Assembly: GCA_045595285.1 (NCBI GenBank)
Contig: JAZOAC010000132.1
Span: forward strand, 456-64,455
Source of the DNA: Kiritimatiellia bacterium
Lineage (GTDB): Bacteria; Verrucomicrobiota; Kiritimatiellia; RFP12; UBA1067
Reading direction: 5' to 3'
Length of the DNA stretch: 64,000 nt
Made by a program: the position numbers and the translations under genes. The notes beneath the pieces are model-generated. The model saw nothing but the letters and a program-made list of their open reading frames with translations, was not told the origin of the DNA and searched no databases. Position 1 is the stretch's first letter. Each line of letters begins with the position of its first letter. Below, piece after piece: positions 61,821 to 64,000 of the stretch.

Positions 61821-61960
61821 TCTCGGTATATCGCAACTTTCCTTAAAATACCGGTGCAGTATACCACATGACTGTTTTGCGGGTCAATTTTTCACCAGTT
61901 CTTCAAGAAGATTTCCCACACTTTATCGGGATTCAACATCGATACCTTCACGGTCTGGAG

Positions 61961-62017
61961 GGGCAATTGTAAAACCACCCGTGGCGCAAGCCTGATCCAG
62001 GGGCTTTGCAATTGCCC
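61961..62017. other. Stem with two internal hairpins (three-way-junction-like)
   Basis: gggcaattgtaaa 61961-61973 pairs with tttgcaattgccc 62005-62017 (1 mismatch). Inner pairs ccac/gtgg and agcc/ggct. Confidence 0.45.
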
Positions 62018-62032
62018 AACCGTTATCCTCAT

Positions 62033-63434
62033 TTACATTTCAGTTGGAGGTGTGATTGCACCGCTTACCGGTATCTCATGAGTATTGACAATCACTTTGA
62101 AAAATGCGGTCCCGCTTTCCGGTTTCGGAATCGTCAGCGTAACGCCGTCCCACGAAGCACGGGCGGCATCGGCGGCTCCGGCAGTCTGCAGATCTGCAAG
62201 ATTGTCCGCAACCGCAACGCCGTAAACTTTGTACGCATCGACGGGAATATTCTCACCGACGCTTCCGGGTTGAAGACCGTAAACTCCGGCAGGTACAGCG
62301 CATAGCCGATTCCCACGGACAATTCGGTACGGTATAGCTTCATGCCGTTCCAGGTATTTCCGGGATCCGCCCCCCCCCCATGCAAACGAAGGAATGAACA
62401 CTTTGGCTGTCTCAGGACAGTAATAGAACGCATACTTGCCCACAGCCGGCTCATTGCCGGTGAATGTCGCCGATTCAAGTGATGTGCAGCCGCAAAACGC
62501 GTAATCGCCCAAAATAAGCACGTCTCCCTTGAATGTTATGCGTTTTAACGACGAACAGTTATAAAACGAATAATCACCGACCGCAATCATCGAAGAAGGA
62601 AAGACAGCCGTCCTGAGCGACGAACAGCCTTCAAACGCGGAAAGCCCTATGCTTGTCACCCCTTCCAGAATCGACACCGAAGTCAATTTGTCGCAATACC
62701 GGAACGCTCACTCTCCAATGGCCAAGACTTCACAATTCCCAAGTTTGGAAGGTATTGCGATATCACCGGCGACAGAACGGGGGATAGAGGGCGAACCGAA
62801 CGTTCTGCTGCCCACCGTGGCCATTCCATTTGACACGGTGAATGTCCACGTCACGCCATCTACCATCTCGTTGTACGGTCCACCATCGGCTCTTGCCGCG
62901 ATTACGATCATGCCGTACCACGTATCGCCGATTCCCGCCCAACCTTCCAGCTCTGCAGGCAGCGTCACTTGCGCATTCTCAGGAGGAGTGGTGAACAGCT
63001 CTTTTCCCATAACCGGCGCATCGCCGACAAACCGCACGGAAGCCAACGCCGGACATCGTTCGAAAGCGTTTTTCCCGATGCCCGTCACGGTGGACGGAAT
63101 CCGCACAGACGAAAGACCGCTGCTGCAGGCAAATGCGTACTCCCCGACATTTGTCACGCCGAACGGGATCTCAAGCTTTTCAAGCGACGCACAGCTGCTG
63201 AACGCAGATGAACCTATGCGCTTAAGATTTGCCGGATATTTTACGCTTTTAAGCGAACTGCATGCCACAAAAAATGCATCCTCTATTTCTGTCATCTGAT
63301 TCGGGAGCGATATGCTTTCGAGAAGTTCGCATTGGTAGAACGAGCGCTCCCCCATGCGCATGACACTCGACGGAAGCGATACCCCCCTTCAGGCTCGAGC
63401 ATTCAGCAAATGCGTTGTTGCCGCTCACATAGAT
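62033..63434 (-). pseudogene. Disrupted BspA-type (LRR_5) surface protein
   Basis: Repeats such as AFxxCSSLxSVxIPxxVTxIGxx. In-frame TGA at 62708-62710, +1 G in a G6 run at 63382-63387, a G10 run at 62370-62379, and no 5' end. Confidence 0.8.
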
Positions 63435-63513
63435 TCAGTGGCGCAAATATCCTGCACAGCGGGAAATGTAGAAAAATGGCATGGACAATGCACATCCCGG
63501 GCCGTGCCATGAC

Positions 63514-63870
63514 TGCGAACTCCCGCACATCATGAAAATGCGGCCCTGACACCGGCATCGGGCATGCCATCCACTGGAAGCTCTCTCACGTCATGAAATA
63601 CAATCAAAAAAAAACTCCGTATAGTCAGCACCTCCCTTACATGGGAACTCGCGCGCTTAATGAAATGCAATACGCGGCGACTGGCGCATACCCGTGCTCT
63701 GACCTGGAAACTCACGCGGCGTATCATGAAATGCAATTCGGCGGAACACTCATCCCCGCACTGTTTGTCTGCAGGAAACTCGCACGTAAATTGCGAAATA
63801 CAATCTAATCCGAACGGACGACGAGCCCAAAAACTTGCTGTAACCTCGTGTGCGAGTTGTGAAATAGCGG
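63514..63870. repeat. Degenerate regularly spaced repeat array, 6 units (consensus about TGGAAACTCGCGCAC..CATGAAATRCAAT)
   Basis: Unit starts at 63514, 63575, 63642, 63705, 63773 and 63839 (spacing 61-68 nt), with unrelated intervening sequence. Confidence 0.6.
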
Positions 63871-64000
63871 ACTTGCCGACAATCCCCTTTGCAGAACCGC
63901 CCGGCACACGCCTCCTCTCATGCATCAAGCTCAGGCTTGGCGACAGCACCATTTGTAGAACCGAACTGACCCGACAAAAAATAGGCCTTCCCATATACAT

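Follow-up and report, generated by a model that had tools for sequence, protein, structure and literature searches.

A run of diverged repeats near one end of the stretch of DNA analysed here (64,000 nt, referred to below as the window) is, on balance, a real, species-private and non-coding tandem repeat: a degenerate "false-CRISPR" that is probably inert and drifting neutrally within gene debris. Nothing about this array, termed the R array, points to a function today, and ordinary genomic debris is the likeliest explanation. The reading draws on the anatomy of the locus, the uniqueness of the array, the absence of coding, RNA-structure and CRISPR signals, and a pattern of population variation that looks neutral. 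The window covers bases 456-64455 of a 64,788-base contig, which ends 333 bases past the window, and the assembly to which the contig belongs amounts to 3.8 Mb in 184 contigs with 55% G+C. Judging by the names that its homologues bear, the DNA comes from gut or rumen Kiritimatiellae.

Anatomy of the R array

The R array is composed of five clear units and one weak unit, with start-to-start distances of 67, 67, 66, 67, and 60 nt. A first-pass annotation of the same DNA had listed five clear copies and a weak sixth, and these were found again at the same positions when the plus strand was examined. The units are best read on the minus strand, which is also the strand of all neighbouring genes. 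In that orientation, a unit opens with ATTG(C/T)ATTTCATGA, passes through a short G+C-rich variable part to GAGTTTCC(A/T)G, and is completed by approximately 32-35 unrelated bases. The core motif of the repeat is ATTGCATTTCATGA...GAGTTTCC, also given as ATTGCATTTCATGA...GAGTTTCCAG.

The conserved halves are 29-34 nt long, contain internal indels, and include a TCATGA palindrome. Within them, ATTGCATTTCAT is identical in three of the units and free of wobble of the synonymous type, while the other half of the unit is unconstrained. The geometry had earlier been described as CRISPR-like, and the alternation of conserved stretches of 29-34 nt with unrelated stretches of 32-35 nt bears out that description. 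A further, eroded unit (R0) may adjoin the array; it would connect the R array with the first LRR unit of the neighbouring gene, which we consider doubtful. The positions of all features are collected in Table 1.

Table 1. Features of the R array and its surroundings, numbered from the first base of the window.
Feature	Position	Strand	Remarks
R1 conserved half	63513..63541	minus	GCATTTTCATGATGTGCGGGAGTTCGCAG on the minus strand; weak in leave-one-out search
R2 conserved half	63574..63604	minus	ATTGTATTTCATGACGTGAGAGAGCTTCCAG; marginal in leave-one-out search
R3 conserved half	63640..63671	minus	ATTGCATTTCATTAAGCGCGCGAGTTCCCATG; top non-training match genome-wide in leave-one-out search
R4 conserved half	63704..63737	minus	ATTGCATTTCATGATACGCCGCGTGAGTTTCCAG; top non-training match in leave-one-out search
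R5 conserved half	63772..63804	minus	ATTGTATTTCGCAATTTACGTGCGAGTTTCCTG; missed by leave-one-out search
R6, weak sixth copy	63838..63870	minus	61-68% identity to R1-R5
Whole R array	63477..63870	minus	Conserved and unrelated halves in turn, six of each; unrelated halves 32-35 nt long
Variable halves	63477-63512, 63542-63573, 63605-63639, 63672-63703, 63738-63771, 63805-63837	minus	
R0, possible eroded seventh unit	63407..63476	minus	31-69% identity to the other units; doubtful
U array, distal part	63871..64000	minus	Full array has six units of 58-64 nt and extends to window-equivalent 64217
Open frame of 156 codons through the R array	63530..64000	minus	Frames of the units shift; called by gene callers in metagenomes
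BspA-type LRR_5 pseudogene	62033..63434	minus	LRR_5 (PF13306), E = 4e-60; 5' end and signal peptide missing
Deletion polymorphism, 1.37 kb	61897..63265		Removes most of the LRR_5 pseudogene and keeps the R array

The repeats are genuine and confined to one species

The conserved halves of R1 to R5 had a mean pairwise identity of 79%, compared to 35 +/- 17% in shuffled sequences. Equally good alignments from shuffled controls had been named in advance as grounds for dismissing the array, and the shuffles gave much lower identity. The identity of the variable halves was 40% versus 31 +/- 19% in shuffles; these halves were not significantly alike (p = 0.13), and the R2/R1 pair was the only one to be so, at p ~0.05. 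R4 and R3 illustrate the disparity, with 88% identity between their conserved halves and no relationship between their variable ones.

Word counts and profile searches likewise set the array apart from the rest of the genome. The 12-mer ATGAAATRCAAT occurs five times on the two strands of the 3.8-Mb genome, and three of these occurrences are in the R array, spaced 66-67 nt apart. When up to two mismatches were allowed, the 14-mer TCATGAAATGCAAT had three matches in the window, all of them in the R array, where 0.86 were expected. Leave-one-out profile searches of the whole genome recovered R4 and R3 with E ~0.01, R2 with E 0.22, and R1 with E 1.5, and missed R5. Three units are strong, two are weaker yet in register, and the sixth is doubtful; R6 was not matched by the R profile. 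A general repeat search of the window picked up pieces of the array, which was not reported by Tandem Repeats Finder at a minimum score of 30.

The R array is private to one Kiritimatiellae species. Genome-wide, the R profile matched only its own five units. The first-pass annotation had proposed a genome-wide search with the consensus; this upheld the locus as unique and brought no further array to light. The profile also had no match in 146 loci obtained from pattern scans of metagenome and genome collections, and the scans themselves, run on metagenome and genome contigs, returned chance matches only, in AT-rich DNA. A DNA search of 40 related genomes found the multi-copy part of the locus alone and no R array, and tblastx of the array against the genome gave noise only, with no similarity to any paralogue.

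Gene remnants on either side of the array

Read on the minus strand, the locus is approximately 1.2 kb of debris in which a stub of a gene of the P0001 family is followed by six U units, the R units, and a truncated LRR_5 gene. The R array thus lies between two gene stubs, since the P0001 gene upstream is reduced to some 70 codons and the LRR_5 gene downstream is dead.

On the upstream side, a longer contig of the same species revealed that only the last ~70 codons of the P0001 gene are left at the locus and are joined to unrelated sequence. The stop codon of the stub is at window-equivalent 64179-64181 on the minus strand. From about 63871 to the end of the contig the DNA is multi-copy, matching a dozen other contigs nearly always at contig ends. 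Copies of P0001 were located at C122:8217-9950, C37:21630-22434, and C126:16255-16887, and on contigs C117, C160, C57, C8, C76, C155, C14, C179, and C181. The first U unit starts inside the last ten codons of the P0001 gene. A profile of the U units identified six of them at the window locus, from window-equivalent 64217 to 63871, and between two and seven behind the P0001 copies on C122, C37, C126, C117, C160, C57, and C8. A further and different repeat array, part of a multi-copy gene family, directly adjoins the R array; this was not visible in the first-pass annotation. No consensus RNA structure was found for the U units.

On the downstream side is the BspA-type LRR_5 pseudogene. Its frame opens immediately after a stop codon at 63435-63437 and has no start region, and no signal peptide was found; the earlier remark that the array sits where the 5' end of a BspA gene is missing was accurate. 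An in-frame TGA at 62708-62710 is common to all strains. In the C6/G6 run at 63382-63387, the present assembly alone carries an additional base, possibly an assembly error, where seven other strains have G5; the frameshift of the other strains is a different one, near 62390. With the TGA in all strains and these frameshifts (near 62390, or in the G6 run), the LRR_5 gene is a pseudogene throughout the species. The 1.37-kb deletion was present in 9 of the 17 contigs read at the locus (L176, L178, L180, and L185-L190). An exact look-up of the 217-residue LRR ORF found no record, and a protein search within the genus gave generic LRR matches only, at 32-47% identity.

The interval between the P0001 stub and MurJ is a hot spot of decay and deletion within one species. 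At the junction of the 1.37-kb deletion there is a filler of 4-6 nt, and long direct repeats are absent. Close species (L181-L184, MurJ 89-91% identical) also differ by rearrangement upstream of MurJ: genes for PTS_EIIA and CvpA lie beside MurJ in one sister species, an intact LRR_5/Flg_new surface protein of 1746 residues does so in another, and debris occupies this place in the species of the window.

Variation within the species

An exact look-up of MurJ, together with one variant of the ORF through the array, yielded 14 metagenome contigs of the same species with 96-99% identity. In each of the 11 other contigs that span the R array there are five R units, no more and no fewer, and their spacing is the same. 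Contigs spanning the U array have five or six U units. The loci of two sister species, in which MurJ is 89-91% identical, have neither the R nor the U array and carry different genes beside MurJ.

The proportion of segregating sites was 3.8% in the R array; it was lower in MurJ (1.0%) and the next two genes (0.3-0.5%), and higher, at 10.9%, in the multi-copy U array. Within the R array, 5.2% of sites segregated in the conserved halves (10/192) and 2.4% in the variable halves (5/209), a comparison of 12 sequences, seven of them distinct, that has little power. The variable halves also contain indels of 1 nt and 7 nt. In strains with the 1-nt deletion, the frame that is open through the R array changes upstream of 63830. 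Replacements in the array frame, counted by eye, were about six non-synonymous to three or four silent. There is no sign of present constraint on either half of the R unit.

Open reading frames through the array

The 156-codon frame that crosses the R array is probably not a gene. Among 5.8 billion proteins, relatives of this ORF were found in the same species only. Extra HMMER matches among 1.84 billion representatives (P0267-P0270) were rejected as fragments or artefacts, consisting of one weak 40-residue match of 30% identity summed over 11-18 identical repeats of unrelated proteins.

Alternative explanations of the repeats

The first-pass annotation was partly supported by these results, and none of the three functions that it proposed gained positive evidence. 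One of these was a decayed CRISPR array, in the present case the relic of an orphan array whose repeats diverged by point mutation after its cas genes were lost. The lengths of the repeats (29-34 nt) and spacers (32-35 nt) agree with this, as does the lack of significant likeness among the spacers; known orphan and degenerate arrays have such lengths too, and likewise no adjacent cas gene. An origin of this kind also predicts separate histories for the two halves of the unit. The repeats of those arrays are, however, near-identical, and CRISPR repeats are expected to be of constant length (23-47 nt), whereas here the identity is 79% and the length varies; the first-pass annotation had itself judged the repeats too divergent for an active array. 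Neither a consensus hairpin nor covariation was detected on either strand, and Rfam, CRISPR-DR models included, gave no match at E up to 10. The earlier statement that the window has no cas gene is in keeping with Pfam searches of 46 window ORFs, in which no Cas family was among the 25 families listed of the 40 matched. The search for cas genes beyond position 64000 was carried into contig L185 and found none in 3 kb on the far side of the array. A k-mer scan of the assembly disclosed no other CRISPR-like array. The spacers, which the annotation had proposed to compare with phage databases, had no match in phage or plasmid collections, and five spacer 22-mers had no exact match in IMG/VR. Finally, unit content was identical in 12 of 12 sequences of the species, all with the same five units, and there has thus been no spacer turnover between strains. 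We consider a CRISPR relic very unlikely. Array-encoded small RNAs processed to unit length, the second proposal, have the regular spacing and nothing else in their favour. The folding energy equalled that of shuffled sequences on both strands (z 0.07 and -0.27), no consensus structure or predicted pairs were found on either strand, Rfam again gave no match, and promoter and terminator matches were at chance level, making this reading scarcely credible. The third proposal, an array of candidate protein-binding sites that would be active now or was so until recently, either as an operator for the downstream gene or as the centromere-like or iteron-like site of a defunct mobile element, is better placed but still rather unlikely. 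It would explain the upkeep of the conserved half at the DNA level, with ATTGCATTTCAT the same in three units, as well as the regular 66-67 nt spacing and the TCATGA palindrome in the unit, and the neighbouring multi-copy element has other classes of repeat, such as heptamer runs on C37 and C126. Against it, the conserved halves show no less variation than the variable ones (10/192 versus 5/209, a small sample), the downstream gene is dead throughout the species and lost by deletion from many strains, the motif is found nowhere else in the genome, and no DNA-binding gene was recognised adjacent to the array, P0001 having no Pfam, PDB, or fold match. The sopC locus of F is a centromere-like array of 12 x 43 bp in which the whole unit is conserved and the gene of the partner binding protein is adjacent. 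The R array resembles such centromere-like and iteron arrays in its tandem units, short conserved core, and regular spacing. It differs in that one half of every unit is free to vary, in that a partner gene could not be recognised, and in the drift of its cores within the population.

The annotation had also held that the array is not a protein repeat, and had named a frameshifted coding repeat as the outcome that would overturn its reading. We weighed this as a decayed coding repeat, in which 21-22-residue repeats (IAFHDxxREFP...) once formed the N-terminal part of a BspA-type or other surface protein and were later frameshifted. The array adjoins the LRR_5 (PF13306) repeats on the same strand and has a similar period (60-67 versus 69 nt), and GCATTT, which encodes 'AF', can be followed into the LRR units at roughly the same phase. 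Two of the R units are multiples of three (66 and 60 nt), and the three 67-nt units each include a run of T that is 3, 5, or 9 bases long. The codon-usage score is least negative in the 'ATT GCA TTT' frame, 0.01 compared to -0.44 and -1.08; even so, 0.01 per codon is far below the 0.22-0.30 of real genes. Against the gene, an HMM built from its own 23-residue LRR units reached 27-32 bits; no frame of the R array gave more than 0.2 bits. Neither the 156-codon ORF, nor its fragments, nor the frame-corrected IAFHDxxREFP translation had a Pfam match. LRR_5 similarity ends at the first true LRR unit, and the 1746-residue LRR protein of the sister species, used as a tblastn query, matched the true LRR part only; the tblastx search against the genome described above offered no paralogue as a source. 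The identity of the conserved halves at the DNA level has no third-position pattern, most periods are not multiples of three, and the 'IAFHD' register meets stops and shifts frame, with stops and frame changes throughout the array. The R array is, moreover, far more decayed than the adjoining pseudogene, in which a single stop is shared among strains. A coding origin is thus distinctly unlikely, less so than a CRISPR one, and the statement that the array, in its present sequence, is not a protein repeat stands.

Probable origin of the array

The preferred reading, an inert and degenerate tandem repeat, has parallels among falsely predicted CRISPRs. In published surveys, false arrays made up approximately 27% of predicted CRISPRs, and tandem repeats accounted for half of these false arrays (Zhang & Ye 2017, BMC Bioinformatics 18:92; PMC5294841). 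Like the false-CRISPR tandem repeats of that study, the R array has a repeat-spacer layout, no companion cas genes, and no strain-to-strain diversity of spacers, and it lies in a hypervariable, repeat-rich region. It differs in that its units are too diverged for Tandem Repeats Finder, and in that its 'spacers' are not detectably alike, whereas most tandem-repeat false CRISPRs keep similar spacers (PMC5294841). The units are arranged head to tail, measure 60-67 nt, and share sequence, as expected of a tandem repeat; similarity over the whole unit was not found.

The inequality of the two halves argues against plain decay of a duplication, under which both halves should decay equally. A duplicated 66-nt unit that decayed evenly along its length could not give the 88% identity that R4 and R3 have in one half beside unrelated sequence in the other: the conserved half was once held constant, or the two halves differ in history. 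Possible reasons are past constraint on a site or peptide motif, homogenisation by conversion, and separate origins of the halves. The array may have arisen by slippage or unequal recombination of a unit of about 66 nt, and would probably continue the U trail at its older, distal end. One or both halves of the unit would once have been kept constant, by selection or by conversion between units, and the array would now be inert and decaying together with its neighbours. As the R array is far more decayed than the pseudogene beside it, it is older than the event that placed the truncated LRR gene there.

On its own the R array matters little. It illustrates in detail that a CRISPR-like layout need not be a CRISPR, which helps to keep such arrays out of annotation, and its surroundings are of more interest.

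Relation of the R array to the U units and the P0001 family

The similarity to the multi-copy element stops at approximately 63870-63871, inside the last U unit. The start of R6 coincides with the exact end of this similarity, and R6 occupies the slot of the second half of that unit. Since R6 fills this slot, the repeat period is unbroken across the junction of the two arrays, at 62, 66, 68, 64, 66, and 61 nt. By eye, the conserved half of the R unit looks like the second half of certain U units. The U profile matched no R unit, and a profile of the R conserved halves found nothing in U arrays. Alignments of R with rotated U units gave p = 0.05-0.13, for the three proximal units only and in a register picked after looking, and a circular profile-profile comparison gave p = 0.37. 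Because these tests of homology gave no statistical support, the continuity between the U and R arrays is one of position, strand, and period.

There is a slim chance that the two arrays are jointly the trace of a so far undescribed process of repeat generation linked to the Kiritimatiellae-specific P0001 family, with the R array as its old end. In that event, new units of about 60 nt would be added at the 3' end of P0001, starting within the final ten codons, and earlier units would be displaced distally and diverge, so that the R array would be part of a growing, gene-associated array and not random debris. We continue to favour inert debris for the R array itself, and regard the P0001 family and its repeat trails as the more promising lead.

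The full-length P0001 protein has approximately 460 residues and one predicted membrane helix. More than 600 homologues were found in Kiritimatiellae, all unnamed and mostly on short contigs. No sequence match to P0001 was found in Pfam, PHROG, or PDB, and the AlphaFold model, which is confident for residues ~20-135 only, had no match in Foldseek. This gut bacterium thus has at least 12 copies or fragments of a gene with no recognisable domain or fold, which break assemblies and trail variable repeats behind them.

Several further observations were made in and around the P0001 copies. The U units fall into position-specific subtypes that are common to different copies, and orthologous copies in other metagenomes (L027 and L028) have no U units. 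In contig L185, a gene encoding an AAA_14/DUF4143 ATPase (L185:424-1755) lies on the opposite strand approximately 1.4 kb beyond the R array, with small unassigned ORFs between. Elsewhere in the genome, C27:22786-23104 contains five near-perfect 80-nt tandem repeats (GACGCATGAATGCGCCCGCACAGGAC...) without spacers. Downstream of the U arrays in two copies are heptamer runs of the GTCCGAA / GACTTCG type with 10-27 repeats, which could be a slippage-prone or protein-binding tract. They are located at C37:21457-21526 (L003:1058-1127) and C126:15945-16137 (L004:1146-1338), and are followed by approximately 400 nt more of shared sequence.
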